A stretch of 54,188 bases of DNA from a virus. Taxonomy: Duplodnaviria > Caudoviricetes. The notes under the pieces are model-generated. The model was not told the origin of the DNA. It did no database searches and was given only the letters and a program-made list of their open reading frames with translations. How positions within the stretch are numbered: position 1 is the stretch's first letter; the number at the start of each line of letters is the position of its first letter. Both the position numbers and the translations under genes were made by a program. Of the stretch, positions 241 to 52,584 are shown piece after piece. Location of the stretch: IMG/VR virus record IMGVR_UViG_3300034220_000043, positions 1 to 54,188 of that record. One strand, 5' to 3'.

Positions 241-1050
241 CTACCGTCGCATCACGGCGAGGCCCCGGTAGTTGGCCGTCCGCATCTTCCACGCCGGGTA
301 ACCCAGCTCGGTGAGCGCCATCCCGAACCGGGTCTCGGTCGGCACCTCGTCGGCGTGCGCGCGGGCCCAGGCCGAGAACGCGGTGTAGAGCTTGCGGCTC
401 GACGTGCCCATCGCGTGCGCCCCGCAGCAGCGCTGCACCCACTCCTGCACGAGCGCGGTCTCCGAGCGCGCGGTGGGCGGCGCGGGCAGGGTGTGCGGCA
501 GATGCACACCCCCGGTGGCCTGCGTGGAGGGTTCGCCGAGCGGACGGACACTGGGCGCGACCTGCGGTTGAGCGCCGGAGAGCAGAGCGGCGATCTGCGC
601 GAGCTGCCCCTCGGCCGCGGCGGCCCTGGACACCAGGTCCTGCACGAGCGCCACCGGGTCGACGACCGTCACGGTCTGGGCGGGCTGCTGCGCTACCTCC
701 GCCTCCCGCGTGCGCACCGCGAAGTACGCCTGGGCCGCAGCGATCTCCGGCTTGTTCGGGTCGCCGTTCATCGCGACGAGGTACGCCGCGAAGCGGGTGA
801 GGTCGTAGTCGGTCAGTGGACGGTTGCCGTTGATCTTCTGGGATCGCAGGAAATTGCTGGTCACGTCCATGCCGACGTTCTCCGCGGCGCGCATGGCGCG
901 GTTCAGCGGGACCTCGAAGTTCTCCCAGCGCGCGTAGTTCGTCAGCGTCTGCAGGTCGCGGGCGGACCACGTCTCCACGCCCTGCTCGTTGACGCTGCGG
1001 ATCGAGTCGAACGGCGAGGCGCCGCCGGTGCGGTCGAGGGTGGTGTTCAC
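241..1050 (-). CDS. Bro-N/DinD-like phage antirepressor with C-terminal winged-helix-like domain
   Basis: SPFDSIR..E.WSARDLQ...Y.RWENF...DY.LTRFAAYLVAMNGDPNKPEIAAAQAYFA; GTG start with AGGAG RBS. Confidence 0.85.
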   Translation of the reverse strand: MNTTLDRTGGASPFDSIRSVNEQGVETWSARDLQTLTNYARWENFEVPLNRAMRAAENVGMDVTSNFLRSQKINGNRPLTDYDLTRFAAYLVAMNGDPNKPEIAAAQAYFAVRTREAEVAQQPAQTVTVVDPVALVQDLVSRAAAAEGQLAQIAALLSGAQPQVAPSVRPLGEPSTQATGGVHLPHTLPAPPTARSETALVQEWVQRCCGAHAMGTSSRKLYTAFSAWARAHADEVPTETRFGMALTELGYPAWKMRTANYRGLAVMRR

Positions 1051-1409
1051 GTCGTCTCCTTCGGGGTGGTGCGGATGCGGGCTGCGTGCTCGATCTCCAG
1101 GGTGAGGCGCTCGACCTCGACCTCCTCGACCGCGGCGTTCTCCACGCCGGCTGGGCCGCGCAGCAGGTGCAGGAGCTCGTGCACCAGGGTCGGTCGCCAC
1201 TCCTCGTCGGGGAGCCCGGCGTCCAGCTCGATGCTCTGCGTGGCGAACCAGGTGCGGCCCATGAAGCCGACATCGCTGAGGTCGGCCACGCGGATGGTGA
1301 CCTCGCCGCGACGGGCGAGCACCTCGCGCAGCACGAGCGCGATGGGCAGGACGTCGGCGAGGGACGGGGGTTCCGCGGGCACGGCGGAACCAGGGATGAT
1401 GGTGCTCAC
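1047..1409 (-). CDS. ImmA/IrrE-family metallopeptidase (copy 1)
   Basis: R.TLVHELLH..RG...EE HEXXH motif; GTGA overlap with the downstream gene. Confidence 0.8.
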   Translation of the reverse strand: MSTIIPGSAVPAEPPSLADVLPIALVLREVLARRGEVTIRVADLSDVGFMGRTWFATQSIELDAGLPDEEWRPTLVHELLHLLRGPAGVENAAVEEVEVERLTLEIEHAARIRTTPKETT

Positions 1410-1492: not shown

Positions 1493-1765
1493 CTACTGCC
1501 CGTCGCGTCGCGGTCGACCCATCGGTCGCGGCGGTTCGACCCAGCGCGATGCGGCGGACTCCGTGACGCCGAGGCGCTCGCCGATGTCGGCGAACAGCCA
1601 GCCGCGCTTCCTCAGCTCCACGACGATCTCGTGCAGCGTCAGCTGACCGCGTCGGCTAGCCGACGCCAGGTCGAGCAGCTGCTCGTCGGTCAGGTCGTCG
1701 TAGTCGAGCTCGCCCTTCATGAGACGGACCAGTGCATTCATCACCTCGGGGGTCAGGTCCGCCAC
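1493..1765 (-). CDS. Small HTH DNA-binding protein, putative repressor of the transfer operon
   Basis: LRKRGWLFADIGERLGVTESAASRW HTH; divergent from the rightward operon; start codon uncertain. Confidence 0.75.
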   Translation of the reverse strand: MADLTPEVMNALVRLMKGELDYDDLTDEQLLDLASASRRGQLTLHEIVVELRKRGWLFADIGERLGVTESAASRWVEPPRPMGRPRRDGQ

Positions 1766-1792
1766 GCGGCGGATCGTAGGGCATCGGGGCCG

Positions 1793-1827
1793 CTTGAAAC
1801 TTAGCAAGCAACTTGCTAGGTTTCAAG
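1793..1827. promoter_or_regulatory. Palindromic operator in the divergent promoter region
   Basis: CTTGAAACTTAGCAAG-caa-CTTGCTAGGTTTCAAG, 16-bp arms with 1 mismatch, AT-rich in a very GC-rich context. Confidence 0.8.
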
Positions 1828-1851
1828 TACACCAACACCGAGGAGCTCCCG

Positions 1852-1989
1852 ATGCCCAGCAGCACCGACCAGCCCACCGAGACCAGCGCCGAGCAGCCGA
1901 CGCCGGCCCCCGCCCCGCGCTGCGGGGTCTGCGCGACGATCCCCGCCGCGGTCGTCGCCCGGAACACCTGCCCGAACGAGGCCCGCTGA
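1852..1989 (+). CDS. Small hypothetical protein (45 aa, CxxC)
   Basis: GAGGAG RBS, ATG; first of a translationally coupled chain (TGATG overlap). Confidence 0.55.
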   Translation: MPSSTDQPTETSAEQPTPAPAPRCGVCATIPAAVVARNTCPNEAR

Positions 1990-2147
1990 TGGCCCGCCGC
2001 GACCACCAGCCGGACAGCCGCAGGCGCAGCACCGAGGCCGAGCCGGGACAGCACCCGCCCGGCCGGCCGTCGCTGCCGCCCAGGCCCAGCGACCCCGACC
2101 ACCTCGGCGTCGACCCCCGCGACCACGTGCAGCGAGGTGGCCGCTGA
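1989..2147 (+). CDS. Small hypothetical protein (52 aa)
   Basis: TGATG overlaps at both ends. Confidence 0.5.
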   Translation: MARRDHQPDSRRRSTEAEPGQHPPGRPSLPPRPSDPDHLGVDPRDHVQRGGR

Positions 2148-2275
2148 TGCCCGGCACCGAGCAGCCCGCCGAGACCCGCGCCGAGGCCACGGCCCGCATC
2201 CACGCCGAGCTGAAGGCGGCGGAGGCCCGGCTCGACGAGCAGACGCGCGCCGCGAGCACGAGGGAGCACCGATGA
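2147..2275 (+). CDS. Small hypothetical protein (42 aa)
   Basis: TGATG and ATGA coupling; GC3-rich codons. Confidence 0.55.
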   Translation: MPGTEQPAETRAEATARIHAELKAAEARLDEQTRAASTREHR

Positions 2276-2436
2276 CGAGTCGCCGGTGGGACAAGCAGCC
2301 CGAGACCGAGAAGGACGCCCGGTTCTTCGACCTGCGCGAGTCCGGCTACCGCGGGTGGATCGACCAGGACGGCAACGCCGTCTCCGCCGCCGAGAAGGCG
2401 CGGCTCGACGACGAGGCGCAGAAGGGCGGCCGGTGA
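2272..2436 (+). CDS. Small hypothetical protein (54 aa)
   Basis: MTSRRWDKQPETEKDARFFDLRESGYRGWIDQDG; RBS, coupled start and stop. Confidence 0.7.
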   Translation: MTSRRWDKQPETEKDARFFDLRESGYRGWIDQDGNAVSAAEKARLDDEAQKGGR

Positions 2437-2634
2437 TGGGCTGGCTGCGTGGGCACGACCGGTTCGTCGAGCACCGGGACGACTTCGACGCCGCGTCCGC
2501 CGCGGTGGACCACGCCAGGACCCCTGCCGAGCGGAACGCGGCGCTGGAGCGGAGCCGCGTCGCTGGAGCGGAGCCGCGTCGCACTGGAGGCGATGGAGCA
2601 GCAGCGCGCCGCCAACGGCAGGAGCGGCGGGTGA
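2436..2634 (+). pseudogene. Small gene frameshifted by a 19-bp tandem duplication, now reading into the downstream peptidase
   Basis: Removing one 19-bp copy restores MGWLRGHDRF...ALERSRVALEAMEQQRAANGRSGG* ending in a GTGA overlap at 2631-2634. Confidence 0.65.
2542..2579 (+). repeat. 19-bp perfect tandem duplication
   Basis: cgctggagcggagccgcgt x2. Confidence 0.95.
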
Positions 2635-3176
2635 AGGCGCTGCTCGCCGCTGCCGCGCTGGGCCTGCTGCTGGCGGTCCAGCGCGGCGCCCTCGACGGGC
2701 TCGGCCCGGCGCTGCTGCTCGTCCTCCTGGCCGCCGTCGCCGTGTGGGCGCTCGGCGGACGCTCCACCGCGGGCCGCTCGGTCGCCGTCCGCGGCCACGC
2801 ACACGGGTCCGGCGCCCTGCAGGAGGTCGCGACCCACGAGGCCGGCCACGCCGTCGCGGCGCGCGCCCTGGGCGGCCGGGTCCGCTCGGCCACCGTGTCG
2901 GCCGACGGCCGGAGCGGGCTCGTGCGGGCGACGCTGCCGACGCAGTCCAGCCAGGCGGCCATCACCTTCTGGGCGGCCGGGCGCATCGCCGCGGGCACCT
3001 CGCGCGGGGCGAGCGCCGACGACGACCTGATCCGCCGCGAGCTGCGCACCGTGCCGTCGGCCGAGCGCGGCCGGATGCGGCGCGCCGCCGAGCGGGACGC
3101 CGCCCGCATCGTCAGCCGGTCCGCCGGCCCCATCCGCCGCGACGCGGCACGACTCATCGAGAGGAGACGGCTGTGA
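2631..3176 (+). CDS. Membrane-anchored HEXXH metallopeptidase (M41/M50-like)
   Basis: Two N-terminal hydrophobic segments; VATHEAGHAVAA; AAGRIA..GAS.DD. Confidence 0.75.
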   Translation: MKALLAAAALGLLLAVQRGALDGLGPALLLVLLAAVAVWALGGRSTAGRSVAVRGHAHGSGALQEVATHEAGHAVAARALGGRVRSATVSADGRSGLVRATLPTQSSQAAITFWAAGRIAAGTSRGASADDDLIRRELRTVPSAERGRMRRAAERDAARIVSRSAGPIRRDAARLIERRRL

Positions 3177-3328
3177 GGTTCGCCGACCTGGTTTCGATCG
3201 GGGTGATGGCCCTGGTCCTGTTCGTCGTGGTCGTCGCCGCCCTGCTGGCTGCCGAGGCGGCGTCCCGCCGGATCTGGCCCGACCGGCGCGGCCTGGCCAG
3301 CTGGCCGTCCAGGCGAGGACCGTCGTGA
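3173..3328 (+). CDS. Small membrane protein (51 aa)
   Basis: One hydrophobic helix; GTGA overlaps at both ends. Confidence 0.6.
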   Translation: MRFADLVSIGVMALVLFVVVVAALLAAEAASRRIWPDRRGLASWPSRRGPS

Positions 3329-3996
3329 AGGCGCTGCTCACTCGGCTCCGCCAGCTCGACGTCGCCGCCGGCGCCGAGCGGCTGGTGCTCGTCGCCGTCC
3401 TGGGCATCGCCGCGCTGGTCTCGTACACCCACCTCCGCGACGTGTGGACCGCGTCCGGGTCGCCGTGGGCCGACGTCGGCCCGCTGCTCGTCGACGGGCT
3501 GTTCGCCGCGGCGTGGCTGCGGATGCGCCGCCGCCGCCGCGAGGGCGTGCCCGTCGGGGGGCTGGCCTGGACCGCGCTCGGGCTGGCGCTGGCGGCGACG
3601 CTGGCGGGCAATCTCGCCGCGCCGTGGGTGCACGGTCGAGAGGACGTGCTGGCGTACGTGGTGGCGGCCTGGCCCGCCGTCGCCTTCGCGTTGGTGTGGG
3701 AGCTGGTGACCGGCCACGGCCGCGCGCCCACCGACGACCCGGCCGAGGAGCCGGACGCTGCCGCGGACGAGCCCGCCCCGCCGCCGCGCCAGCCCGAGGT
3801 GGAGGAGCTGGCGCCCGCGCCGCTGGACGTGGAGAGCTGGGAGGAGAAGCGCGACCGGCTGCTCGACGAGGGCGTCGGCCGGCCGACGCTGAGCCGCGAG
3901 CTGGGCATCAGCGACTACGAGGCCCGCCAGCTCGTCGAGACGCGGAAGCTGCTCGTCACCAGCACCGCCAACGGCCACCAGGTGGCGGGCCCGTGA
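3325..3996 (+). CDS. DUF2637/SpdA-like membrane 'spread' protein with C-terminal HTH
   Basis: AALVSYTHL..PLLVDGL..ATLAGNLA..AAWPAVA..ELV four-TM pattern; GRPTLSRELGISDYEARQL HTH. Confidence 0.75.
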   Translation: MKALLTRLRQLDVAAGAERLVLVAVLGIAALVSYTHLRDVWTASGSPWADVGPLLVDGLFAAAWLRMRRRRREGVPVGGLAWTALGLALAATLAGNLAAPWVHGREDVLAYVVAAWPAVAFALVWELVTGHGRAPTDDPAEEPDAAADEPAPPPRQPEVEELAPAPLDVESWEEKRDRLLDEGVGRPTLSRELGISDYEARQLVETRKLLVTSTANGHQVAGP

Positions 3997-6170
3997 CGCT
4001 GGAGAAGCGCCCGCAGACCGACCTCGTGCCGGTGCAGCAGCCGGTGCAGGAGCGGGTCCGGCAGCACCTCGTCGCGCGCCGGGTCGCGGTCGTCGCCACC
4101 AGTCGCAGGCGGGCGTGGACGGCGTGGCGGGTGGCGCGCCAGCTCCCCGGCACGGCCTGGTGGCTCCTGGTGTACACCCCCCGCGGGGCCTGGCGGCTGC
4201 TGACGGCGTGGGCCCGCTACCTGCGGGATGTCGAGACCAGCGAGCTGCGCAGCCACCACGTCGGGACGCACGAGACCCCGGAGTACGTCCGCGCGTCGAA
4301 GGAGCGCGCGGCGAACCTACGGGCCCGCGCGCTCGGCTCCGCGCTGCTGGTGGCGCCCGGGCTGGTGCTGCTGCTGGCGTGGCTGGCGCCGCAGGTGCTG
4401 GCCTGGCTGGCCGCTGGCGGGGCGCTGGTGCTCGCCGTGAAGGTGCTCCCGCGGAAGGAGTGGTGGGAGATCCTGCTGCCGCCGGCCGCGGCGTACGGGG
4501 CGTGGTGGGTGACGCCCGACCTGGCGGCCCGGGTGCCGCACCCTCCAGGCTGGCTGGTGACGCTGGGCCTCGCGCTGGCGGTGGTGGTGTGCGGCTGGCA
4601 CGGCCGCCAGCTGGAGCGCCCGCTTGTCACCCTGCCGATGCGCGAGCACACCGAGGGGGACCTCCCGGCGAAGCCGACCGCGACGATGGTGGTCGACGCG
4701 CTGTGCCGCGCCGGGATCCCCGGCATGACCCTGCAGCAGGCCGACCGCGTGCACGACGAGACCCGGGTCATCGCGCCTGGCGTCGCCAGCTCGACGCACG
4801 GCTACATCGTCGAGCTGGAGCTGCCGCCTGGCGTGACCGTCGACATGGTGGTGAAGCAGCGCCCCCCGCTCGCCGCCGCGCTGCGCCGCGACCTGTCGAC
4901 GGTGTGGCCGTCCGGCAACCCCGAGCGGCACCCCGGCTACCTGCGCCTGTTCCTGTCGCACAAGCCGATGAACAGGGCGCGGCAGCCCGAGTGGCCGGTC
5001 GCGGTCGGCAAGCCGCTGTCCTACTTCGACGCCTTCCCGATGTTCACCGACGAGCAGCTGCGCTGGGTCGACCTCGTCCTGGCCGGCACGCACATGGCGA
5101 TGGGCGGAGCGTCCGGCTCGGGCAAGTCGGTCGGGCTCCGCCAGTTCGGCGTCGCGCTGGGGTTCGCGCTGGACACCGACATCATCGTGTTCGACGGCAA
5201 GCGCTCCGGGGACCTCAACCCGATCCGCGAGCTGTGCGTCGGCTTCTTCGAGGGCGCCGAGCCGGAGGACGTGCAGGAGCAGCTCGCCTGCCTGCGCTGG
5301 CTGGTCGCCGAGCGGGAGCGCCGCGCCCGGTTCCTGGCGTCGCTGCCGCGCGAGGAGAACCGCCAGTCGAAGGTGACCCGCGAGCTCGCGGCGAAGTACC
5401 CCGACCAGCTCGCGCCGATCGTCGTGCTGTTCGACGAGGTGCAGGAGTACACGGAGTACGGCATCAAGGGGAACAAGACCGAGAAGAAGATCCGCGACGA
5501 GTTCGTCGCGCTGCTGACCAAGCTGGCCCGCCTCGCCCGCGCGGCCGGCATCAGCCTGGTGTTCGTCTCGCAGAAGCCCGACGCCTCCGTGCTCCCCTCG
5601 GCGATCATGGGCAACTGCGGGATCCGCGTGGCGTTCCGGGTGCTGGAGCAGGTGCACAACGACCAGATCCTCGGCACGAGCGCCAGGAAGAACGGCGTCG
5701 ACGCGACCATGTTCACGCTGCAGGACCGCGGCATCGCCTGGGTCCGAGGCGGCGAGTCGGCCGACACGATGGTCGCGCGCACCTGGTCGCCGATGATCGA
5801 CCTCGACCTCGCCGACGAGCTGGCCGCCAAGGCGTACGCGCTGCGCAAGGCGGCCGGTCGTCTGCCCGCGTCGGACGACGTCGTCGACGCCATCGTGGTG
5901 CTCGACGAGGTGGTCGACTGCACTCGCGTGCTGATCCAGTGGGACCGCGACCGTGCGCACCTCAGCGAGCTGGCCGGGTGGCTCGCCGACGCGAAGCCCG
6001 ACTACGCGGGGCTCGACGCGGCCGAGCTGGGGAAGCGGCTGCGCAACCGCGGCGTCGCCGTCCGGCAGGTCCGTGTTGCCGAGCGCGTGACGGCCGGCGT
6101 CCGGCTGGTCGACCTGCAGGAACGCGGCGCGGACGCGGTGCTCGATCTCGACAACAGCGACGAGGAGTGA
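3993..6170 (+). CDS. traB: FtsK/SpoIIIE-family DNA translocase, TraB-like conjugative transfer protein (725 aa)
   Basis: N-terminal TM helices, Walker A GGASGSGKS, DGK, Walker B VVLFDEVQE, ARAAGI..SQKP, C-terminal wHTH-like region; context with the spd-like gene. Confidence 0.8.
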   Translation: MTLEKRPQTDLVPVQQPVQERVRQHLVARRVAVVATSRRRAWTAWRVARQLPGTAWWLLVYTPRGAWRLLTAWARYLRDVETSELRSHHVGTHETPEYVRASKERAANLRARALGSALLVAPGLVLLLAWLAPQVLAWLAAGGALVLAVKVLPRKEWWEILLPPAAAYGAWWVTPDLAARVPHPPGWLVTLGLALAVVVCGWHGRQLERPLVTLPMREHTEGDLPAKPTATMVVDALCRAGIPGMTLQQADRVHDETRVIAPGVASSTHGYIVELELPPGVTVDMVVKQRPPLAAALRRDLSTVWPSGNPERHPGYLRLFLSHKPMNRARQPEWPVAVGKPLSYFDAFPMFTDEQLRWVDLVLAGTHMAMGGASGSGKSVGLRQFGVALGFALDTDIIVFDGKRSGDLNPIRELCVGFFEGAEPEDVQEQLACLRWLVAERERRARFLASLPREENRQSKVTRELAAKYPDQLAPIVVLFDEVQEYTEYGIKGNKTEKKIRDEFVALLTKLARLARAAGISLVFVSQKPDASVLPSAIMGNCGIRVAFRVLEQVHNDQILGTSARKNGVDATMFTLQDRGIAWVRGGESADTMVARTWSPMIDLDLADELAAKAYALRKAAGRLPASDDVVDAIVVLDEVVDCTRVLIQWDRDRAHLSELAGWLADAKPDYAGLDAAELGKRLRNRGVAVRQVRVAERVTAGVRLVDLQERGADAVLDLDNSDEE

Positions 6171-6238
6171 AGCGCATGTGCAGGTCAGGGCGTTGTCGGG
6201 CGTGTTGTCGAGCGACAACGTCCGCGGGGTTCGACAAC
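6149..6238. repeat. Cluster of five GTTGTCG/CGACAAC heptamers (candidate clt-like site)
   Basis: Copies at 6149, 6192, 6204, 6213 and 6232 in both orientations, at the traB 3' end. Confidence 0.65.
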
Positions 6239-6252
6239 ACGGAGGTGGCCCG

Positions 6253-6450
6253 GTGATCGAGCCGTGGATGTGGTGGGTCGTGCCGCCCGGGCTGTACCTG
6301 CTGCACGTCGCGATGTGGCCGCTGCGGAAGTGCTGGGCGTGCGGCGGCACCGGCCGGCTCGGCGCCCCGATCGGCCGGGCGTACCGGGACTGCGACGCGT
6401 GCGGCGGCCGCGGCGAGCGCTACCGGTGGGGCCTGTTCCGGCGTCAGTAA
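6253..6450 (+). CDS. Small membrane-anchored zinc-finger protein (DnaJ-type CxxCxGxG x2)
   Basis: CWACGGTG...CDACGGRG; GGAGG RBS. Confidence 0.75.
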   Translation: MIEPWMWWVVPPGLYLLHVAMWPLRKCWACGGTGRLGAPIGRAYRDCDACGGRGERYRWGLFRRQ

Positions 6451-6480
6451 CGCGGCCGAGCGCCGGGCCGACGGTCGGAG

Positions 6481-6792
6481 GTGACCTACTCCGCTCCTCC
6501 GCAGCGCCGTTCCCCGGACACCACCTACGGCGCGCCGCCGGCGCCGCGCAGGCAGCTCGTCGTCGCGCGCGAGTCAGCCTCGATGATGTGGCTCCGCGCC
6601 ACCACCTACGTGCTGTGCTCGCTCGCCGCGCTGACGTTCCTCGTGCTCGTCGTCTACGGGTACCTCCAGCTGCAGGCGCTGGCCGCGGCGTGGGAGCAGC
6701 TCGGGGCCGGGCTCGGGGGCCTCGGGGGTGCGACGCCCCCGCCGTCGTTCGAGCTGCCGCCGTTCCCCGAGGACCCGACCCTCGGCGGGTAG
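6481..6792 (+). CDS. Membrane protein
   Basis: Single TM helix; last gene before the terminator. Confidence 0.6.
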   Translation: MTYSAPPQRRSPDTTYGAPPAPRRQLVVARESASMMWLRATTYVLCSLAALTFLVLVVYGYLQLQALAAAWEQLGAGLGGLGGATPPPSFELPPFPEDPTLGG

Positions 6793-6810
6793 CCCACACC
6801 ACCCCGACAT

Positions 6811-6855
6811 GCAGCAGCCCGGCCCTCTCCGTGGATCTGAGGGCCGGGCTGCTGC
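6811..6855. terminator. Bidirectional terminator between the transfer operon and the late operon
   Basis: Perfect 17-bp stem gcagcagcccggccctc / gagggccgggctgctgc between convergent genes. Confidence 0.85.
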
Positions 6856-7135: not shown

Positions 7136-7519
7136 TCAGCGGGTGTAGAGCACCTCGCCGTCGACGGTGATGGGGGCGAGGACCTGGGAGCGGACGAACA
7201 GGCCGGTCACCAGCGACAGGGTGGTGAGCAGCGCTGCCTGCTGCGGGGTGTCGAGCGGGACCCCGAAGGTGACCAGCAGCGCGACGCCGGCCTTGAAGGC
7301 GCCGGTGAGCAGCGGCAGCAGCGCGTCGGAGCGCACCTTGACGGCGGTGTAGACCGACGCCGCGGCGAGCAGGAACGCGTTGATGGCGGCCTGCACCGGC
7401 TCGTTCAGGCCGGGCAGCAGAAACAGGTGCGCGACGACGAGCGCCGAGGCGACGACCTCGGCGAGCATCGCGGGCTCCCGCCCCAGGATCAGGGTGCGGG
7501 ACGTGATGGGGGCGGTCAT
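7136..7519 (-). CDS. Holin
   Basis: ILGREPA motif, ~4 TM helices, adjacent to the endolysin. Confidence 0.75.
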   Translation of the reverse strand: MTAPITSRTLILGREPAMLAEVVASALVVAHLFLLPGLNEPVQAAINAFLLAAASVYTAVKVRSDALLPLLTGAFKAGVALLVTFGVPLDTPQQAALLTTLSLVTGLFVRSQVLAPITVDGEVLYTR

Positions 7520-7570
7520 GGCGTGCGGTACCTCCAAGGTGGGGGAGCGGGCCAGCTGCGCGGCTGGGGG

Positions 7571-8527
7571 TCAGAGGGGTGCGCGGAGCCGGGCGGCCAG
7601 CTCGTCGGCGACCACGGCCGCGAGCGCGCGCGGGTCCGCGCCCGAGGCGACTGCGGCCTGGCGCAGCGCGGCGGCGAGCTCGTCGAGCCGGGCCAGCACC
7701 GTGCCGCCGGCCGCGATGTCGGCGGGCAGCAGCTCGGGCGCGCCGAGGGCGGCGAGGATCTGGTCGCGGGCGTAGCCGACGTCGACGCGACGGGCCAGGG
7801 CGCCCTCGGCGGTGAGAGCGGCGACCTGGTCATGCACGCCGGCGGTCCGGCCCTCGGTGGCGGCGAGGATCTGCACGGCCGCGACCCGCCCGCCCCAGCT
7901 GTTGGTGACCGCGTGGCCCCAGACGGCCTCGGCGATCTCGGCGGCAGTGGGCATGTCGTCGTCCTCCAGGGGTGCGGCGGCCGGCGGCCGGGGGGTCGGG
8001 CTCGGGGTGGGCGCACCGAGGCGGTCGCTCCAGCGCGCGATCTTGCGCACGGCGTCGTCGCCGTAGAGTTGCGCGGGATGGGTCGGTCCGCGGGACAGCC
8101 CGCCGGGGCCGCCGTTGTAGGCGACGAACCCGCCGCGCACGCCGTACCGGGCGATGTGCCCGGCTAGGATCGAGAACCCGACGGTGACGTTGGCCGTCCA
8201 GTCCCAGCAGCCGCCGAGCCGATCGGCCTCGGCCTGGTAGTCGCGGCTCGTGAGCTGCGTGGGGCCGACGCCCTGCTGGCCGGCGCGGCCGGCGAGCAGC
8301 TCGGTGCGGTAGCGCTCGTAGTCGGCGCGGGTCACCTCGGCGCCGGGCCGGTACAGCACGCCCTTGCCGCGCACGGCGTCGGCGCCCCACACGTTGCGGC
8401 CGCCTCCGGACTCCTTCTCCAGCAGGGTCGCGGCGACCGCGAGGGGCAGCCCCGCGGCGGCGGCCAGCTCGACGACCTCGTCGGCGCGGCGGATGCCCCA
8501 GGCGTCGAGGCTGGTCGCGGCGCTCAC
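7571..8527 (-). CDS. Endolysin (lysozyme/lytic transglycosylase-like)
   Basis: LEKESGG..GVGPTQLT..AYNGG SLT-like motifs, Pro linker, C-terminal helical region. Confidence 0.8.
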   Translation of the reverse strand: MSAATSLDAWGIRRADEVVELAAAAGLPLAVAATLLEKESGGGRNVWGADAVRGKGVLYRPGAEVTRADYERYRTELLAGRAGQQGVGPTQLTSRDYQAEADRLGGCWDWTANVTVGFSILAGHIARYGVRGGFVAYNGGPGGLSRGPTHPAQLYGDDAVRKIARWSDRLGAPTPSPTPRPPAAAPLEDDDMPTAAEIAEAVWGHAVTNSWGGRVAAVQILAATEGRTAGVHDQVAALTAEGALARRVDVGYARDQILAALGAPELLPADIAAGGTVLARLDELAAALRQAAVASGADPRALAAVVADELAARLRAPL

Positions 8528-12500: not shown

Positions 12501-12772
12501 GTGCCCTCCTCGGCGAACGACAGGTCGACGGTCAGCGCGGTGAGGGTGACGCCGGGGCGCTTGTAGAACAGCGCGCCACCAACCGGGCCGGCACTCGCCT
12601 CCGCGATCTTCGACCAGCCGGCCGAGGCGGTAGACGCAGTCGGCGCGGAGTCCCACGTGGTGACGACCAGGACACCGCGGGCTGTGGTGGCCCCGGCGGG
12701 CATCGTGATGGCGTGCGTGCTCGACGAGGCGAGAGCACTGGACGCGAGCCGGTCGGCGACGGTGGGCGCCAT
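9563..12772 (-). CDS. Large minor tail / tail-tip protein (1069 aa)
   Basis: Follows the tape measure; WTDI..VR..ITIGRSDE..LTLDNR.G.Y and AYWPCED motifs; N-terminal AGHASGTG repeats. Confidence 0.8.
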   Translation of the reverse strand: MAPTVADRLASSALASSSTHAITMPAGATTARGVLVVTTWDSAPTASTASAGWSKIAEASAGPVGGALFYKRPGVTLTALTVDLSFAEEGTYVVLAVDAAAAAEDVYAASGAGTSANPDPPSLTPPGGSRDYLWITAYGREAASSASAAPSGYANLTTAAGGPSGAGTQTAERTVTAATEDPGAWTATAEDHVVWTIAVPPAAGATTAPAGHASGTGTAAAATAAVRPAAGHASGTGTASQPAVSTTGATTAPAGHAAGTGTARAPAASVRPVAGQATGTGTAHQPTVTTLAITTAPAGHASGTGIAHQPVGAATATRASAGHASGTGLARQPTVQVPLGTGVVLLPDHLAQGRLSVEIAWGADLAADPDTWTWTDIASDVRYDDRITITIGRSDEAAAPQPATCNLTLDNRAGLYSLGGQSPNWPNVRRNTPVRVRVSLDNGTSWSTRFQGYAVGFTPQWDSTGRDATVALEAAGVTRRLKQGNAPVLSTLRRSVLASAAAGVGVRAYWPCEDPPGSTSIAPGLPGVGAMTITGDAEFPYPKWAANSDDFLCSRPLPEVNGTVWRGVVPDHAATGQVQVRMLLGIPAAGAATTEETLFSVYTTGTLARWDVRYQVGGALDLEAYDTAGALAFSANGAFNSDNTRRRISLQLSQDGADVDYTLRVVPVEAFSGGGGLISGTVASDTIGRATAVAINPGGLITDTVIGHITVEDAITSAVTDQPAFNARLGESNGPRLQRLCDEAGIELEIIGTGGQPMAAQPVDQLLPLIREVDTADGGVIHDGLSAGLTYVTFIARSSEAPALTLDVAQLARALEPVLDDQGVRNRVTTTSRRGGEFTAEDTDGPMGTAAIGVYDTSLDVSGFYSTGVSNIAGIRLARGTVEGYRHPRLQLDLARNPDLADDWLTITLASRIDVTGIDTVRTQHPAGTVSQIVEGWTERLDQLRWDVVANCAPYEPWRVGIVAEPTGDIGEFVLRAADSGTSTIASPAAAGATSLSVATPAGDPLWSTVADDYPLQVEVGGVVVQVTACSGASSPQTFTVAATPKALTTGLVVAVYRPNLTDLYVTSI

Positions 12773-14946
12773 CAGGCGCTCGCGACCTGGAGCTGAAGCT
12801 CGCCGGAGCGCTGCATCCGCATGAGGAGGTCGGCGAACGCGCCGGACGCGCCGCCGCCCACGACGAGCTCGACCCGCAGCACGCCGCCGCCCGCGGCGCT
12901 GCTCGCGGGGGGAGCGGCCTGCTGAGGCACACCGGGGCCGCCGGGCAGCGCGACGGCCGGCAGGGACACGCCGAGGGCGACCTGCGCGCCGCCGAGGACG
13001 TCCCGGGCGGCGCCGACCACGTCGGGCAGCCCGGCGCGGATCGCCGCGGCGAAGTCGCCGACCAGGGCCTCGCCGGAGCGGTCGACGTACCCGGACCCGG
13101 AGAACGGCCCCTCCTTCGCCGGGCTGAACGGGAACAGGCGGCGGACCGCGCCGAGGCCGACCTGCACGGCGGCGACGGCGCCGTTGAAGGCGCGCCGGAT
13201 CCCGTCGGCGAAGGAGTCGATCATGCGGCGGCCGGAGTCGGCGAGGATGCCGGGCAGCCCGGCCAGGAAGCCGCGGATCTTCCCCGGCAGGTCGCGGAAG
13301 AACCCAGCGACCCCGTCGAGCTTGTCCCGGATGCTCGTGCGGAAGCCCTCGGTCTTCTCCTTCATGGTGTCGAAGTCGCCGGTCAGCGCGGCCGCGGCCA
13401 GCGACAGGATGTCGATCAAGCCCTGGACGATCGGCGTGCAACCCTCGATCGCCCCCGCCAGGAACTCCAGCACCGGCAGCGCCGCCTCGGCCCCGGCAAC
13501 GAACAGCGGGAACGCGGCCAGCGCGAGTTCGAGGATCTGCGGGATCAGCGGCAGCACGGCCAGCAGGACCCGGGTGATGACGGCGACGAGCCGGTCGAGC
13601 AGGCCGGAGTCGACGAGCTGGGTGATCGCCCCGGTGAGGAACTCCCCGAAGGCCGTGGCGATCTCGACGAGCACGGGGGACAGCGCGATGAGCGCGGTCG
13701 CGAGCGCGCCGCCGACGACGCCGGCCAGCTGGACGAAGGCGTCGAGCAGGCCGGAGTCGACGAGCGCGGTGACCAGGCTGGTGAGCAGGGTCCCGACGGT
13801 GGCGATCAGGCCGGAGTCGACGAGGCTGGCCTGGAAGGCCTCGGCCAGGGCGACGACGACCGGCGCGAGCGCGCTGATCAGGGGGAACACCGCGGTCAGG
13901 GCCGCGATCAGGACCTCACCCATGGCGCCGGACACCGCGCGCATCGCCTCGCCCAGGGCGCCGAGCGCGGCCTGCGCCTCCTCGGTGTTCAGGGCCTCGC
14001 GCAGCGCGGCGGACAGCTCGACCAGGCCGTCGAGGAACACGCTGAAGTCCTCGCCGCCGGCCAGGCCGCGGAACACGGCGGAGAGGATGCCGCCGACGTT
14101 CGCGGCGACCTCGCCGAGCTGGCGCAGCGCGACGAGCGCCCGGTCGATCATCTCCTGGATCGAGCCGTCCTCGACGCCGGAGTCCACCCACTCCCGGAAC
14201 CGCCGCGCGACGTCGCCGATCGCCTCGCCCAGCGCGGGCAGGTAGGTCGAGCCGACGCCGCCGAGCCCGACGAACCCGGACACGAGGTCGGCGACCGAGC
14301 CCTCCATGCCGACGAACGCCCCGCGTGTGTTCTCCAGGATGGCGGTGAGGTCGTCCTGGAAGAACGGGTTGCGCATCGCCTCGACGGCCTGGCGGCCCAT
14401 CTCGCCCATGGCGCCGGCGATCCCGGACAGCCCCGTCTGCAGGATGGGCATGAGCACGGTGCCGGTGCGCTCGATCTGGGTGGCGAACCCGCGGAAGAAC
14501 TCGCCCTGGACCGAGCGCCGCAGGTCGTCGAAGGCCGGCCTCAGGTCGCGCACCGCGGAGGCTGCCTCGACGGCGGCCGGGGCCATGTCCTTCGTGGCCT
14601 CGGCGAACGCGGCCGGGTCGGCCGCCGCGATCGCCTCGCCGAACCCGTCGGTGGCGAGCTTGAAGGTCTGCATCGCGGCGGCCCCGGCGAGCAGCGCCCC
14701 GGGCAGGATCAGCGCGGCGGGCGCCGCCGTGGCGAGCGCGGTGCCCAGCCCGCCGATGGTGCTGACCGCGCCCGACGCGGCGGAGATCCCGGCCAGCCCC
14801 TTCACCACCGAGCCGAGGGGCCCGGCCGCCGACCCGGCCGCCGAGCCCATGCCGCGCGCCCCGGCCGCGATGCCGGACATCGTGCGGGAGGCGAGGTCCC
14901 GCACGATCACGCGGATCTCGACGTCGTTACCGCCCGGTGAGCTCAC
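12772..14946 (-). CDS. Tape measure protein (724 aa)
   Basis: Long Ala/Gly/Leu helical protein after the chaperones; PFSPAKEGPFSG motif. Confidence 0.9.
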   Translation of the reverse strand: MSSPGGNDVEIRVIVRDLASRTMSGIAAGARGMGSAAGSAAGPLGSVVKGLAGISAASGAVSTIGGLGTALATAAPAALILPGALLAGAAAMQTFKLATDGFGEAIAAADPAAFAEATKDMAPAAVEAASAVRDLRPAFDDLRRSVQGEFFRGFATQIERTGTVLMPILQTGLSGIAGAMGEMGRQAVEAMRNPFFQDDLTAILENTRGAFVGMEGSVADLVSGFVGLGGVGSTYLPALGEAIGDVARRFREWVDSGVEDGSIQEMIDRALVALRQLGEVAANVGGILSAVFRGLAGGEDFSVFLDGLVELSAALREALNTEEAQAALGALGEAMRAVSGAMGEVLIAALTAVFPLISALAPVVVALAEAFQASLVDSGLIATVGTLLTSLVTALVDSGLLDAFVQLAGVVGGALATALIALSPVLVEIATAFGEFLTGAITQLVDSGLLDRLVAVITRVLLAVLPLIPQILELALAAFPLFVAGAEAALPVLEFLAGAIEGCTPIVQGLIDILSLAAAALTGDFDTMKEKTEGFRTSIRDKLDGVAGFFRDLPGKIRGFLAGLPGILADSGRRMIDSFADGIRRAFNGAVAAVQVGLGAVRRLFPFSPAKEGPFSGSGYVDRSGEALVGDFAAAIRAGLPDVVGAARDVLGGAQVALGVSLPAVALPGGPGVPQQAAPPASSAAGGGVLRVELVVGGGASGAFADLLMRMQRSGELQLQVASA

Positions 14947-24014: not shown

Positions 24015-25349
24015 TCAGGCCCGGGTCGCGAGCTGCACGAAGGGCGACAGCGTGCCGGCGCCCTTGTTCGGGGTGATCGCGTTCTTGATCCACGGCCGGC
24101 CGTCGACGCGCTCGATGATCCGGTAGGCCGTCGAGTCGACGTTGAACTTGAAGTGCTCGCTGGTCATCGCCGTCATCGACTGCCGGTCACCGATGAGGTA
24201 GTAGCCCAGGTCGACGAAGTTGATGTCGCCCGCGAGGCCGAGGGTCTCGGCCTTCTCGGTGAAGATGACCGGCCGGCCGAGGATGGTCATGGGCGGGCCG
24301 TCGACGCCCGAGCCCAGCCACACCGCGGAGCCGCCGGTGCCGACGCTCAGCGCCATCGTGGCGAGCTCGGGGAAGGTGTCGATGTTGGCGATCCACACCG
24401 CGTTGGCCAGCGCGGACGGCAGCATCCGCGCGTACATCTTGACGATGTTCTCCCAGACGATGGAGCCCGCCGCCTGGCCGGCCTCCTTCGCCACGGCGAC
24501 CCGCGCGGTGTTGCCCGCGTTGAGGAAGCCCAGGGGCTCACCGACGCCCGAGCCGCGCATGAACGCGACGTCCTCGAACCAGGCGAGCGCCTCGGGGAAC
24601 AGCTGGTCGACGAACGCGCTGACGCTGACCGCGGAGTCGGCGAGCAGCTCGTTGGGGATCTCGGCGTAGCCGGTGAGCTTCTGCGCGTCCAGGGTGACCG
24701 ACCCGAACTTCGCCGAGCTGGCGACCAGCGCGGCGGCCTCCTCGGTCCAGTAGCCCACGACGCCGCCGTAGACGCTGGAGGCGTTGGACTGGGCGTCGAT
24801 CATCGGGAACTTGATCCGCGGCGTCGCCATCGGGATGACCCGCGCGCGGGGCCGCACGATCGCGGACTCGAGCGCGACGCGCAGCAGCTCGGCCCGGAAC
24901 TCCTCCGGCACCAGGAAGCCACCCTCGGAGGGGATCGTGGTGCTGTAGTCGTTGCGGATCTGGCCGAGGCGCTCGGCGGCCGGCCGGTCGCCCTTGCGCT
25001 CGTCGAACAGCGCCTTGAGCAGGTCGCCGGTCGACTCGAACTTGCCGTCGAGCTGGGCGCCCGGGGCGTGCCGGTTGTGGTGCTGGCCGCGGTTGCGCGC
25101 GACGGGGGAGTCCGGGCGCAGGTCGGGCCGGTTGGTGACCGGCTGGTCCTTGAGGAACTCGGCGAGGGTGGCCTGCACCTGCTCCTGCACCTGCAGGCCG
25201 AGTGCGGCGTCCTTCTCGGCGACGGCGGTGGCGTAGTTCTTCACGAACTCGCCGAGGTCACCTCCGTCGAAGATCGCCTTGAGCTTGCCGTCGTCGCCGA
25301 GCATCTCCTCGAGCTCGGCGGCGGACGTGGGGATGACCGTGCTCGTCAT
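24015..25349 (-). CDS. Major capsid protein (HK97 fold)
   Basis: SEGGFLVPEEF..NELLADS..GSGVGEPLG..ILGRPV..ERVDG. Confidence 0.95.
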   Translation of the reverse strand: MTSTVIPTSAAELEEMLGDDGKLKAIFDGGDLGEFVKNYATAVAEKDAALGLQVQEQVQATLAEFLKDQPVTNRPDLRPDSPVARNRGQHHNRHAPGAQLDGKFESTGDLLKALFDERKGDRPAAERLGQIRNDYSTTIPSEGGFLVPEEFRAELLRVALESAIVRPRARVIPMATPRIKFPMIDAQSNASSVYGGVVGYWTEEAAALVASSAKFGSVTLDAQKLTGYAEIPNELLADSAVSVSAFVDQLFPEALAWFEDVAFMRGSGVGEPLGFLNAGNTARVAVAKEAGQAAGSIVWENIVKMYARMLPSALANAVWIANIDTFPELATMALSVGTGGSAVWLGSGVDGPPMTILGRPVIFTEKAETLGLAGDINFVDLGYYLIGDRQSMTAMTSEHFKFNVDSTAYRIIERVDGRPWIKNAITPNKGAGTLSPFVQLATRA

Positions 25350-26532: not shown

Positions 26533-26699
26533 TGGCTCTCGCCCTTCTTCACCACGTCGCGGATCCACTTCGGGAGCGCCGCGTACGTGTCGTGGGGTTG
26601 CGCCTCCTCGGCCAGCCGGAACCGGTCGTCCAGGCTCAGGTCGTCGGGGGGCAGCGCGTGCAGGGCGGCCGCGATGCGGTGCGACAGCTCGGGGGTCAT
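26529..26699 (-). CDS. Small protein (56 aa), candidate immunity protein
   Basis: MTPELSHRIAAALH...LPKWIRDVVKKGESQ; ATGA overlap with the portal-fusion stop. Confidence 0.65.
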   Translation of the reverse strand: MTPELSHRIAAALHALPPDDLSLDDRFRLAEEAQPHDTYAALPKWIRDVVKKGESQ

Positions 26700-29990: not shown

Positions 29991-30319
29991 GAGGTCACCC
30001 CCCGCGGCGAGGTGGGGTGCGTCAGCTCGGCGGGCGCGGTCTGGTGGGCGACGAACGCCACGCCGTCGACGTCGGGCTCGCACCACCCGTCACGCAGCGT
30101 CGTGCTGGGGATCCAGCGGGCGGGGAGGAGGCCGCAGCTGGCGGTGATCGGGTGCCGGTCCTGGTGCGGCTGTGTGTCCCACCAGGCCGCGTGCTCGGTG
30201 CAGCTCATGGTCACGCTGTCCACCGCCCACACGTGCACGGTGGCGGGCGCGCCGCAGTAGCGGACGGCGGTGCCAAAGAGGCAGCGCTGCACCACGGCCA
30301 GCTCGTTCGCGACGCTCAT
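29987..30319 (-). CDS. Hypothetical Cys-rich protein
   Basis: ATGA coupling to terL. Confidence 0.55.
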   Translation of the reverse strand: MSVANELAVVQRCLFGTAVRYCGAPATVHVWAVDSVTMSCTEHAAWWDTQPHQDRHPITASCGLLPARWIPSTTLRDGWCEPDVDGVAFVAHQTAPAELTHPTSPRGVTS

Positions 30320-39856: not shown

Positions 39857-40320
39857 CGCGTACCGGCCCGGCGGCTCAGCGGGTCGGGGAGCCCGCAGTC
39901 GGAGGCGGCCGCGAACAGGCTGTGACGCCCGGCGTCGGCGGCGTGCGGCATGCCCTTGACGAGCAGCCCGGCCGCGATGAGGCGGCGGTCGGTCGCCCAC
40001 GGCTTCACCTCGGACGCGGACCGCAGCACGACGCGCATGCCCCGGTCGCCGGCCCAGGCCTGCAGCGCGCCGATGAGGTCGCGGGCGGTGCGGCCGCCGG
40101 CGGGGGTGGAGGAGCGCCCGGCGCGGGGCCCGACGACGAACGCCTCGACGGCCAGCAGCACCTCGGCGGGGTCCTGGGCGCCGAGCAGCATCTCGACGGT
40201 GTCGAGCACCAGCTCGGGGGTGACCTGCGCCAGGGCCGCGGGGCGCCAGGCGTCGAGGTCGATGCGGGCCAGGCCGGTGGTCGAGCCCGGGTCGACGCCG
40301 ATCACGGTGCGGATCTTCAT
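39853..40320 (-). CDS. RuvC-like Holliday junction resolvase
   Basis: VIGVDPGSTTG..VE.F..VK..HAADA. Confidence 0.75.
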   Translation of the reverse strand: MKIRTVIGVDPGSTTGLARIDLDAWRPAALAQVTPELVLDTVEMLLGAQDPAEVLLAVEAFVVGPRAGRSSTPAGGRTARDLIGALQAWAGDRGMRVVLRSASEVKPWATDRRLIAAGLLVKGMPHAADAGRHSLFAAASDCGLPDPLSRRAGTR

Positions 40321-50659: not shown

Positions 50660-51142
50660 GTGATCAGCGACGACGCGGTCTGCCTCCTCGACATGCTCCA
50701 GGAGATCCTGGAACGTGACGGCGAGCTGCACCTGCGGCACGTCGACCTCCCTCCCGGCAGGCTCGGCCTCGCCCACTTCCGACAGCGGCTGGTGACCCTC
50801 GCCCGCGGCTTGGACCGCGGCGAGTGGCGCGGCACCCTCGGCCACGAGCTGATGCACCTCAAGCGCGGCCCGGTCGCGAGAGAACACGCCGAGGCGGAGG
50901 AGGAGGAGGTCCAGCGCGAGACCGCCGCGATGCTGGTACCCCCGGGCCCGGCGCTGGCCCAGCTCGGCAGGGAGTGGAGCGACGGGGAGATCCAGGAGTT
51001 CGCGTCGCGGTTCGTCGTGGACCGCGACACCATCGAGACCGCACTCGACCAGGCCGGGGTTCCCGAGACGCCGGCGCGGGGCAGCGTCCCGGTCCCGCGG
51101 CTGCCGGTGTTCATCGAGCTGGGCTCGGCGTCGCGACGCTAG
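50660..51142 (+). CDS. ImmA/IrrE-family metallopeptidase (copy 2)
   Basis: RGTLGHELMH..RG..EE..AA.LV; lies between the repressor and the integrase. Confidence 0.82.
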   Translation: MISDDAVCLLDMLQEILERDGELHLRHVDLPPGRLGLAHFRQRLVTLARGLDRGEWRGTLGHELMHLKRGPVAREHAEAEEEEVQRETAAMLVPPGPALAQLGREWSDGEIQEFASRFVVDRDTIETALDQAGVPETPARGSVPVPRLPVFIELGSASRR

Positions 51143-52512: not shown

Positions 52513-52554
52513 GGCAGTGATGCTAGGTCACGTGTTGGTACACACGAACACGAC
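52428..52554 (+). repeat. Second copy of the 127-bp segment; prophage-host (attL/attR-type) junction at ~52554
   Basis: Direct sequence identity to 1-127; lies just upstream of the integrase start and abuts the host gene. Confidence 0.9.
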
Positions 52555-52584
52555 ATGCACGGCGATCACCGTAGGGTGCCCGGT

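Follow-up and report, generated by a model that had tools for sequence, protein, structure and literature searches.

The window analysed here is the whole of the IMG/VR virus record IMGVR_UViG_3300034220_000043, a single contig of 54,188 bases with a GC content of 74%. Positions 128–52554 are best explained as a 52.4-kb temperate siphophage of a Pseudonocardia species, whose serine integrase inserts just upstream of cobC. Near its left end lies a rightward operon built around a gene for a TraB-like ATPase. Judged from the sequence, the best explanation is that the phage carries, between attP and its lysis genes and as a native part of its genome, a cassette for the transfer of double-stranded DNA (dsDNA) of the type found on plasmids and on the integrative and conjugative elements of actinomycetes (AICEs). 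That this cassette carries the dsDNA of the phage itself from one hyphal cell or compartment to another without the help of capsids has, in our estimate, about an even chance of being correct. An initial annotation of the window had described the region as a TraB/Spd-type conjugation module inside an otherwise intact prophage.

The ATPase and its relatives

Genes were called by codon-position GC, and their proteins were scanned against Pfam, PHROGs and NCBIfam. A tblastn search with the 725-aa ATPase matched 31 of 72,556 plasmid records, all of them from actinomycetes (27 Streptomyces, 2 Pseudonocardia, 1 Nonomuraea and 1 Saccharopolyspora), with pSVH1 and pSG5 among them. For pSVH1, deletion of traB abolishes transfer and TraB binds the clt site (PMC4447253; background from articles given by PMC number is taken from excerpts of them). 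Among 50,697 phage records, tblastn gave no match at E ≤ 1e-5, only seven rows at chance level (E 0.2–0.7). In a large protein collection, 86 of 8,000 scored candidates matched, 73 at E ≤ 8.8e-75, and these were mostly metagenomic. Chromosomal FtsK proteins reached only E 1.6e-7 to 7.7e-4 in that search, with about 27–35% of the query covered. A single-protein search of genome contigs found at least one match, on a short contig labelled Gaiellales. The same kind of search of viral contigs returned nothing, and an alignment-based profile search found ten IMG/VR loci (27 pattern matches). Related loci are denoted below by L numbers; one of them, L014, is an 18.4-kb AICE-like circle from Streptomyces whose Tra protein is 34.5% identical to the ATPase.

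We placed the ATPase in a tree of 40 rows. These were the window protein, 12 of the 75 non-self matches that ranked above chromosomal FtsK (P0002–P0075) and that span the identity range, seven IMG/VR loci, pPaSha2, L014, L016, five plasmid TraBs, Wanda gp196 and 11 chromosomal FtsK proteins. The tree is a quick IQ-TREE run with SH-aLRT support only, and it leaves out the partial genes L003, L007 and L013 as well as EccC/EssC. One branch (SH-aLRT 100, length 2.71) unites the window family with pSVH1, pSG5, pSTS2, pCM32 and the AICE-like L014 and L016, while all 11 FtsK proteins of chromosomal origin, together with gp196 of mycobacteriophage Wanda, fall on its opposite side. Matches to EccC/EssC were weaker, with NCBIfam E values of 3.7e-4 and worse and Foldseek E values of 5.9e-9 and worse, compared with 1.6e-13 for FtsK. 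These comparisons support grouping the ATPase with conjugative plasmid TraB and AICE Tra proteins, apart from chromosomal FtsK, as the initial annotation had proposed. The ATPase scores only 20.4 bits against the NCBIfam plasmid_TraB model (NF041214, cut-off 800), but this model is narrow, and pSVH1 TraB itself scores 41 bits.

A structure model of the ATPase (AlphaFold2, 31 of 73 relatives as input, mean pLDDT 84.8) comprises an N-terminal helical membrane part (residues 18–204), an alpha/beta domain (230–330), an FtsK-type motor (340–620) and a C-terminal domain (639–715). With hydrophobic segments at 111–153 and 184–204, the N-terminus is predicted to be membrane-associated. The motor matches E. 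coli FtsK (2ius; Foldseek E 1.6e-13, TM-score 0.64), and the Walker A (G377, K378) and Walker B (D481, E482) residues are invariant in the 31 relatives. The C-terminal domain, which reached a pLDDT of 77.4 when folded alone, has the order helix-strand-helix-helix-strand-strand at 639–704. Its structural neighbours (listed down to Z 4.8, with 30 chains at Z ≥ 5) are very largely winged-helix proteins, which is suggestive of a winged-helix-like fold. A Foldseek search with this model gave no row at E ≤ 0.001, and comparing the C-terminal 96 residues by sequence with solved structures gave chance-level rows only.

Repeats at the traB stop codon

Five copies of the word GTTGTCG or its complement CGACAAC straddle the traB stop codon. 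The word occurs 17 times in the whole 54 kb, with these five packed into 90 bp; the window has only one further cluster of a comparably rare word, at 35.2 kb. For each locus we determined the best Poisson enrichment of any 7-mer per 200-bp segment, in steps of 25. Only 13 of the 2160 segments of the window score as high as the one at the stop codon, although the test is generous to chance because adjacent segments overlap. The stop-codon segment ranks within the top 2.5% in nine of 13 family loci, and likewise in pSVH1 and one other Streptomyces plasmid. As a positive control, the same count recovers the pSVH1 array directly 3' of traB (GACCCGG, six copies). The clt regions contain direct 8-bp repeats that are recognised by the matching TraB (PMC4447253).

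The repeated word differs between loci. GGTCAGG is present in L001 (eight copies), L007 (six) and L010 (five), TGTCGCG in L012 (seven) and L011 (three), GGTTGCC or GTTGCCG in L006 (five), CGCATCG in L009 (five), CGTTAGG in L005 (four), GCTATCG in L014 (five) and GCTAGCG in L016 (six); L015 has a weak word only and L008 none. We compared these words with protein identity in the motor (residues 230–620) and in the C-terminus (636 to the end). The window and L001 share 63% of motor residues but only 29% of the C-terminus, and their words are different. The window and L006 are 38% identical in the motor and 54% in the C-terminus, with words one base apart (GTTGTCG versus GTTGCCG). L001 has the same GGTCAGG as L010 (motor 41%, C-terminus 65%) and L007 (38% and 55%). 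The words of L014 and L015 differ (57% and 30%), and those of L014 and L016 are one base apart (46% in both parts). The repeat word thus appears to track the C-terminus of the ATPase and not its motor. This is the strongest new evidence obtained, from direct comparison of few informative pairs. A C-terminal domain that reads the neighbouring repeats, and is exchanged along with them, would be expected to give this pattern. The GTTGTCG array is therefore a candidate for the cognate clt site of the ATPase.

Read as an RNA hairpin (6171–6252), the repeat region was rejected, as it folds no better than shuffled sequences (z -0.06). In 11 of 18 loci, the traB stop is followed at a distance of 10–150 nt by another conserved word, TGACCTGC(G/A), often extended to GACCTGCGGAAAC: the window (6178–6190), L005, L006, L007, L008, L009, L010, L002 (pSVH1), L017 (pSG5), L019 and L020. 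In four Streptomyces plasmids it stands at a fixed +145 to +148. Its enrichment is only moderate, since the 7-mer GACCTGC is common in these GC-rich loci (44 copies in the window).

The element, its boundaries and its relatives

Bases 1–127 are an exact copy of 52428–52554, and the identity stops sharply at 128 and 52555. The copy comprises the first 28 codons of the serine integrase gene and 42 nt upstream of it. The left contig end is an attP-type joint, of a circular or tandem form, and the right end is a phage-host junction; the contig runs from the joined attP form through the whole phage and the integrase gene to the junction and into host DNA. The att-bounded element is thus 128–52554 (52,427 bp), and because of the repeated ends the module lies within the same circle as all phage genes, with a single integrase. 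The junction, at 52554|52555, is followed by genes for a CobC-type aminotransferase and then NIF3. As the flanking CobC-like protein is 82–88% identical to proteins of named Pseudonocardia species, the host is taken to be a Pseudonocardia, a mycelial actinomycete. The junction lies about 30 nt upstream of the start of the cobC-like gene, so integration may swap out the promoter region of that gene (window 52513–52600).

The joint was also found in assembled contigs (not reads) from Logan. In run X1, the probable source of the window and not independent of it, two pieces tile the circle, both at depth 36.7; one stops at base 127 and the other, a contig of 22.7 kb, begins at base 98 and leads over the attP joint and through the module to the tail genes. 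In run X2, from a different study, a 575-nt contig covers 1–494 with zero differences. Since this contig crosses the joint too, the joint is not a one-off assembly artefact, although the four sequencing runs, each dated 2020 and with a biocrust or soil label, possibly come from a single campaign. An identical ATPase in the protein collection lies on a contig of 52,568 bases. As a matter of arithmetic, not checked on the sequence, this length would fit a circular assembly with a 141-base overlap (52,427 + 141). The joined attP circle or tandem thus exists beside the prophage, as a DNA form. The initial annotation had located the module between attP and the lysis genes of an otherwise complete tailed phage, with no second integrase or Rep gene. 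This description stands: the integrase fragment at the left end belongs to the same integrase gene, and the phage replicase does hold a Prim-Pol domain. The annotation had itself named a separately bounded element or a misassembly as the danger, but the module lies in a single att-bounded circle, its joint is present in two runs of two studies, and other, independent complete elements are arranged in the same way.

From 6879 to 49868, nearly all called genes lie on the minus strand and constitute a full tailed-phage genome (Table 1). The exceptions are three weak or antisense plus-strand calls at 38545–39758 and 47304–47678. The holin and lysin genes are the first of the late arm and face the module. 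Further genes encode tail proteins, a major tail protein, a head-tail adaptor, a ClpP-type protease, methylases, an SNF2 helicase, a RecE-like exonuclease, a LuxR-type regulator and a Cro-like helix-turn-helix (HTH) protein. Terminase, portal, capsid, protease, head-tail, tail, lysis and integrase genes, by which a temperate tailed phage is recognised, are thus all present. No tail sheath was found in the family scans of the window, from which we infer a non-contractile, siphovirus-like morphology. Pfam scans of the window found neither ParA/ParB nor a plasmid Rep. The element therefore differs from phage-plasmids in lacking plasmid replication and partition genes and in having an integrase and a phage-host junction. 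It also combines an integrase, a Prim-Pol and an FtsK-domain Tra within 128–52554, the combination that defines an AICE in the excerpts of Ghinet et al. 2011 (PMC3218068). According to the same excerpts, that AICE survey set aside complete prophages, the class to which this element also belongs.

Table 1. Positions of module, phage and control features in the window
Feature	Position	Strand	Remarks
Anti-repressor-like protein (Bro-N / DinD N-terminal type)	241–1050	-	phrog_8036 E 4.3e-32; phrog_63 'anti-repressor Ant' E 3.8e-9; NCBIfam DinD E 1.9e-34, below cut-off
Small HEXXH protein (HELLH), weakly ImmA/IrrE-like	1047–1382	-	Pfam Peptidase_M78 E 0.028, below cut-off
Divergent 90-aa HTH protein, candidate module repressor	1493–1765	-	Pfam HTH_23 E 2.9e-4, 21 bits, below gathering score
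35-bp palindrome, candidate operator	1793–1827		16-nt arms, 15/16 complementary, 3-nt spacer CAA
Small ORFs 1–4	1852–1989, 1989–2147, 2147–2275, 2272–2436	+	overlapping
Fifth small ORF	from ATG 2436	+	frame-shifted
Membrane protein with HEAGH motif, putative membrane metalloprotease	2631–3176	+	two N-terminal hydrophobic segments
51-aa single-pass membrane protein	3173–3328	+	
DUF2637 polytopic membrane protein	3325–3996	+	Pfam PF10935 E 8.7e-10, 39.2 bits (cut-off 22.8); phrog_733 E 4.8e-9
TraB-like putative dsDNA translocase, 725 aa	3993–6170	+	Pfam FtsK_SpoIIIE PF01580 39.1 bits (cut-off 24)
Five GTTGTCG/CGACAAC copies, candidate clt / TraB recognition repeats	6149–6238		straddle traB stop
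65-aa protein, CxxC-x17-CxxC (zinc-ribbon-like)	6253–6450	+	N-terminal hydrophobic stretch
69-aa membrane protein	6583–6792	+	final operon gene
Hairpin, terminator-like	6811–6855		17-bp perfect stem; folding z -6.0 and -6.9 on the two strands
Holin	7136–7537	-	phrog_9752 E 1.4e-16
Putative lysin	7571–8527	-	56%-identical homologue adjoins traB module of L006
Tape measure	12772–14946	-	
HK97-type capsid	24015–25349	-	
Portal	26696–29578	-	
Large terminase (TerL)	30316–31917	-	
Prim-Pol / D5-like helicase / family A polymerase replicase	33117–37976	-	1619 aa
Large serine integrase	51139–52512	-	sole integrase of element

The module itself (1852–6792) is a tightly coupled operon in which eight successive gene junctions overlap by one or four bases, and its gene content and coordinates are essentially those first annotated. 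For the small open reading frames (ORFs) at 1852–2634, Pfam, PHROGs and NCBIfam gave no family match; the fourth has a 52%-identical homologue in L012. Of the five tiny genes described initially, the small ORFs are present, but a 19-bp tandem duplication (2553–2590) shifts the frame of the fifth, which now continues into the HEXXH ORF. If the duplication were absent, this ORF would have 60 codons, from ATG 2436 to TGA 2634. The HEXXH membrane protein has weak Pfam matches only (M50B/M50/M41, E 0.002–0.1, below cut-off) and a 40%-identical homologue in L009. The DUF2637 protein has an acidic, proline-rich linker and a C-terminal HTH-like tail. For the small CxxC protein, the most likely start is GTG 6253, behind GGAGGTG, rather than 6178. 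This leaves a gap of 82 bp downstream of the ATPase gene. Its match to DnaJ_CXXCXGXG is weak and below cut-off, and homologues lie directly 3' of the ATPase gene in L006, L011, L012, L013, L015 and L016.

The divergent HTH gene, the large palindrome and the terminator that had been assigned to the module were all recovered. A 39%-identical homologue of the HTH protein is encoded upstream of the DUF2637-TraB pair in L008. The palindrome lies in an unusually AT-rich gap of 47 bp and contains TTGAAA-17-TAGGTT rightward and TTGAAA-17-TAAGTT leftward, which makes it a candidate operator with face-to-face promoters. A consensus scan of the window found no sigma-70-like promoter. A Pfam scan of the window found no GntR-type TraR/KorA, and the divergent HTH_23-like gene with the palindrome occupies that place. 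The hairpin at 6811–6855, between the converging module and late operon, is bidirectional and terminator-like; it has no T run, and a consensus terminator scan gave one unrelated site only.

The same core recurs elsewhere. Among L005–L013, Pfam places a DUF2637 gene directly upstream of the ATPase gene in five of nine loci (L006, L008, L010, L011 and L012; 144 of the 155 ORFs of at least 70 aa were scanned). Such a gene is also upstream in L005 and L009 according to tblastn, and in L001 (identical to L004), L014 and L015 according to RefSeq annotation; L007 and L013 begin inside or at the ATPase gene and have no upstream side to inspect. Tail or tape-measure genes flank eight of the ten IMG/VR loci, and the other two (L008, L009) have an endolysin only. 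As only contigs already chosen as viral entered this search, the share is no estimate for the whole family. Of five records tested, three encode both an HK97-type capsid and a portal; L008, a 66-kb record with direct terminal repeats, matches neither Pfam model. Judged by annotation, two closed circular Pseudonocardia 'plasmids' are genomes of temperate phages, and in both the cassette has the integrase on one side and lysis or tail genes on the other. P. alni pPaSha2 (L015, CP052773.1, 41.9 kb) encodes capsid, protease, portal, terminase, Bet, integrase and holin. P. broussonetiae unnamed3 (L001, NZ_CP053567.1, 27.4 kb) encodes terminase, head-tail connector, HK97 gp10, tyrosine integrase and Prim-Pol. 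MOB typing labels both as non-mobilizable despite their TraB-like genes.

The relatives without phage genes are AICE-like. L014, from Streptomyces sp. NBC_00562, has GntR, NUDIX, Prim-Pol and integrase genes. L016 (NZ_LT559118.1, about 689,000–702,000) is a small AICE of about 12 kb by gyrA-gyrB-recF-dnaN-dnaA of Nonomuraea gerenzanensis, with genes for an XRE-like regulator, DUF2637, a TraB-like protein, the CxxC protein, Prim-Pol and a tyrosine integrase. Its record, 11.85 Mb long, is catalogued among the plasmids under the name 'plasmid I'. By these sequence comparisons, DUF2637, TraB and the zinc-ribbon protein appear to form a conserved core across phage-borne and AICE-like loci. Because L014 and L016 interleave with phage-borne rows in the tree, the cassette has been exchanged between AICEs and phages.

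Some other features of the phage deserve mention. Between attP and the candidate repressor gene of the module, the anti-repressor-like gene and the overlapping ImmA-like gene (241–1382) may be a second regulatory pair acting in induction. Within the replicase ORF, between its helicase and polymerase parts, an AT-rich island (35155–35450) holds at least five copies of CCCTCCACA in both orientations and may be the replication origin of the phage. It recalls RepAM, which binds 8-bp repeats located in the gene that encodes it (excerpts of PMC2440964). Finally, a 662-aa minus-strand ORF (38012–40000) has N6/N4 methylase motifs at each end, with DPPY near the N-terminus and a Pfam match that covers the last 60 positions of the profile at the C-terminus. 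An HNH_3 endonuclease gene (38545–38931, plus strand) runs antisense to the low-complexity middle of this ORF, and the region looks like a homing-endonuclease insertion that keeps the host ORF open.

Proposed working, alternatives and precedents

We envisage that the divergent HTH protein binds the palindrome and keeps the operon shut, as in a kil-kor pair. As homology, fold, repeats and covariation suggest, membrane-anchored TraB-like hexamers would use their winged-helix-like domain to recognise the GTTGTCG array where the traB gene ends. They would then pump phage dsDNA across a septal or lateral wall, either to the next compartment of the hypha or to another hypha in contact with it. From their conserved synteny, the DUF2637 protein and the small zinc-ribbon membrane protein would be conserved partners, and the HEXXH membrane protein and the tiny proteins lineage-specific accessories. 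In the recipient, the Prim-Pol/PolA replicase of the phage could copy the DNA, which would then integrate through the serine integrase or enter the lytic course. The phage would thus have two routes, by virions and by capsid-independent, contact-dependent spread.

Several observations weigh against this proposal. A prophage normally excises as part of lytic induction, and the donor compartment would then die. The DUF2637 protein, taken for Spd-like in the initial annotation, does not bear that name out: an hhalign comparison of 10 DUF2637 with five SpdB2-type proteins gave a probability of 0.7%, that is, no detected homology. The sole bridge is a pSTS2 protein that is 56% identical to SpdB2 and labelled DUF2637 in RefSeq; in its cut form it scores 21.7 bits against the DUF2637 profile, below cut-off. 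Pfam and NCBIfam scans of the window found no other Spd homologues and, like the Pfam scan mentioned above, no GntR-type regulator; a NUDIX Pif was not found in the window either. The repeat evidence is uneven, since enrichment at the stop codon is weak or absent in four of 13 family loci (none in L008; 9.7%, 3.8% and 2.9% of segments score as high in L015, L011 and L014) and missing in three of five reference plasmids (pSG5, pSTS2, pCM32). The five repeats are two direct pairs in inverted orientation, not a purely direct array, and as they lie just upstream of the next gene they could be the operator of another protein. The fold matches of the C-terminal domain are modest (best Z 6.5, best Foldseek E 0.06), and the tree contains no EccC/EssC. 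One small ORF of the operon is frame-shifted in the window and also in run X2, where a contig covering 2422–2761 has the duplication with zero differences. Part of the family was recovered from bins with the labels Phycicoccus, Gaiellales and Myxococcaceae, which, if the labels are right, are not classical mycelial hosts.

The pump could instead have a vertical role, distributing phage circles across septa or into spores like a phage-DNA-specific FtsK/SpoIIIE, with no transfer to other individuals. The motor is indeed of FtsK type, a cis site on phage DNA suits any movement of DNA across a septum, related elements are free circles in cultured Pseudonocardia genomes, and plasmid TraB also acts in intramycelial spreading (excerpts of PMC4447253). 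Yet the phage integrates and is inherited with the chromosome, the ATPase groups with conjugative TraB and AICE Tra and not with segregation FtsK, and no partition genes were found in the window; we regard a purely vertical role as unlikely. Capsid-independent transfer also has to be set against a moron for lysogenic conversion or exclusion, which would block incoming conjugative elements or phages or act on foreign DNA. The module sits at the prophage end by att, a place typical of morons, and has a promoter region, a candidate repressor and a terminator to itself; in PHROGs, the nearest phage family (phrog_1358, E 1.2e-28) belongs to the category 'moron, auxiliary metabolic gene and host takeover'. 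However, it is the phage's DNA that bears the array, and the repeated word changes with the ATPase C-terminus, which points to the element's own DNA as the substrate. AICE-like elements without phage genes also have this cassette as their transfer module. This makes an exclusion function rather improbable.

A separate small AICE inserted in or next to the prophage, or an assembly chimera, would explain why the closest non-phage relatives are AICE-like and interleave with phage-borne copies in the tree, and why the module is encoded on one strand and the late and early phage genes on the other. We give this explanation hardly any credence. The element has no second integrase or plasmid-type Rep, and the fragment at the left end is from the phage's own integrase gene. 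One 22.7-kb contig spans joint, module and tail genes at the depth of the other phage contig, and the GC content is even along the full window. Contigs from unrelated samples and the two closed circular replicons have the module in the same place by lysis and tail genes.

An element that both conjugates and makes virions is already in print for Streptomyces plasmid-phages, so that the idea has precedent. Zhong et al. in 2010 (pZL12/phiZL12) and Chen et al. in 2012 (pFP4) reportedly described single molecules that make tailed virions and carry an actinomycete tra function; these are said to be autonomous Streptomyces plasmids of roughly 90 kb with rep and par genes. The present element is a 52-kb integrating Pseudonocardia prophage with a serine integrase and no partition genes found, a distinction drawn from citing descriptions. 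The term 'phage-AICE hybrid' of the initial annotation is fair for the gene content, but less new than was held. PhiNon1 of Nonomuraea gerenzanensis, a 59-kb element that is both integrated and circular, is called reminiscent of pZL12 in excerpts of PMC5431353, and the text of that paper has zero mentions of FtsK or TraB. Our Nonomuraea match was considered as PhiNon1 and this was ruled out, as it is the small AICE adjoining dnaA/gyrAB.

The module resembles the TraB/clt/Spd system of pSVH1 and pSG5 (excerpts of Thoma et al. 2015, PMC4447253) in its membrane-anchored FtsK-like translocase, which falls in the same tree clade, in the short repeats directly 3' of the gene, in a coupled upstream gene for a polytopic membrane protein and in a divergent repressor gene. 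It differs in that the ATPase is only 26–29% identical to pSVH1 TraB over the motor, the upstream DUF2637 protein has no detectable similarity to SpdB2, the repressor is not of GntR type, SpdB3/Spd79 homologues are missing and the carrier is a phage. With AICEs it shares the combination of integrase, Prim-Pol-type replication and FtsK-domain Tra in one att-bounded element (excerpts of PMC2440964 and PMC3218068). The AICE-like L014 and L016 have the same DUF2637-TraB core, L016 with the small CxxC protein as well. Unlike AICEs, this element has a full set of virion, lysis and lytic replication genes, is four to five times larger and has no NUDIX Pif or GntR Kor; its integrase is of the serine type, whereas AICEs usually have tyrosine integrases (excerpts of PMC2440964).

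Phage-encoded proteins of related kinds have been noted before. SpdB2 homologues were remarked on in the temperate actinophages phiC31 and VWB, where they might spread phage DNA. That remark concerns a lone Spd-type membrane protein, while a translocase, repeats and a three-gene core are found here. Cultured actinophages also encode FtsK/SpoIIIE ATPases (Omegavirus or cluster-J-type phages such as Wanda, and ORF63 of Thermobifida phage P1312), but Wanda gp196 has only 442 aa and lies on the chromosomal FtsK side of the tree. ORF63 is encoded a few genes from a serine integrase (excerpts of PMC4569894). In the literature searched, which did not cover most subscription journals and supplements, no TraB gene with cognate repeats is described as a conserved part of integrating temperate phages. 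The same literature held no description of pPaSha2 as a phage, and the paper on P. alni strain Shahu has zero mentions of it.

Phages and conjugative elements are usually treated as having separate transmission routes. A survey of phage-plasmids sought conjugation by CONJscan, with relaxase and type IV secretion profiles (excerpts of PMC7969092); as these profiles cannot see TraB, such surveys are blind to a single-protein TraB system. The question can be tested directly, since pPaSha2, a close architectural relative, sits in cultured P. alni Shahu, for which conjugation and gene-deletion tools are published (excerpts of PMC8928166). The joint swapping of C-terminus and repeat word, if it holds, offers a natural specificity series for how TraB-type motors read DNA. 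If the cassette works on phage DNA, temperate actinophages would move between hyphae without receptors or virions, which would change views of host range, spread in soil mycelium and phage-AICE evolution. A wider and more doubtful proposition is that this TraB family branch is mainly phage-borne, and that temperate phages of Pseudonocardia and related filamentous actinomycetes routinely own such a pump with matching repeats as a capsid-independent route, AICEs and phages exchanging the pump and, separately, the DNA-reading domain with its site. If that were so, AICEs could be regarded as relatives of these phages without capsids, or vice versa.

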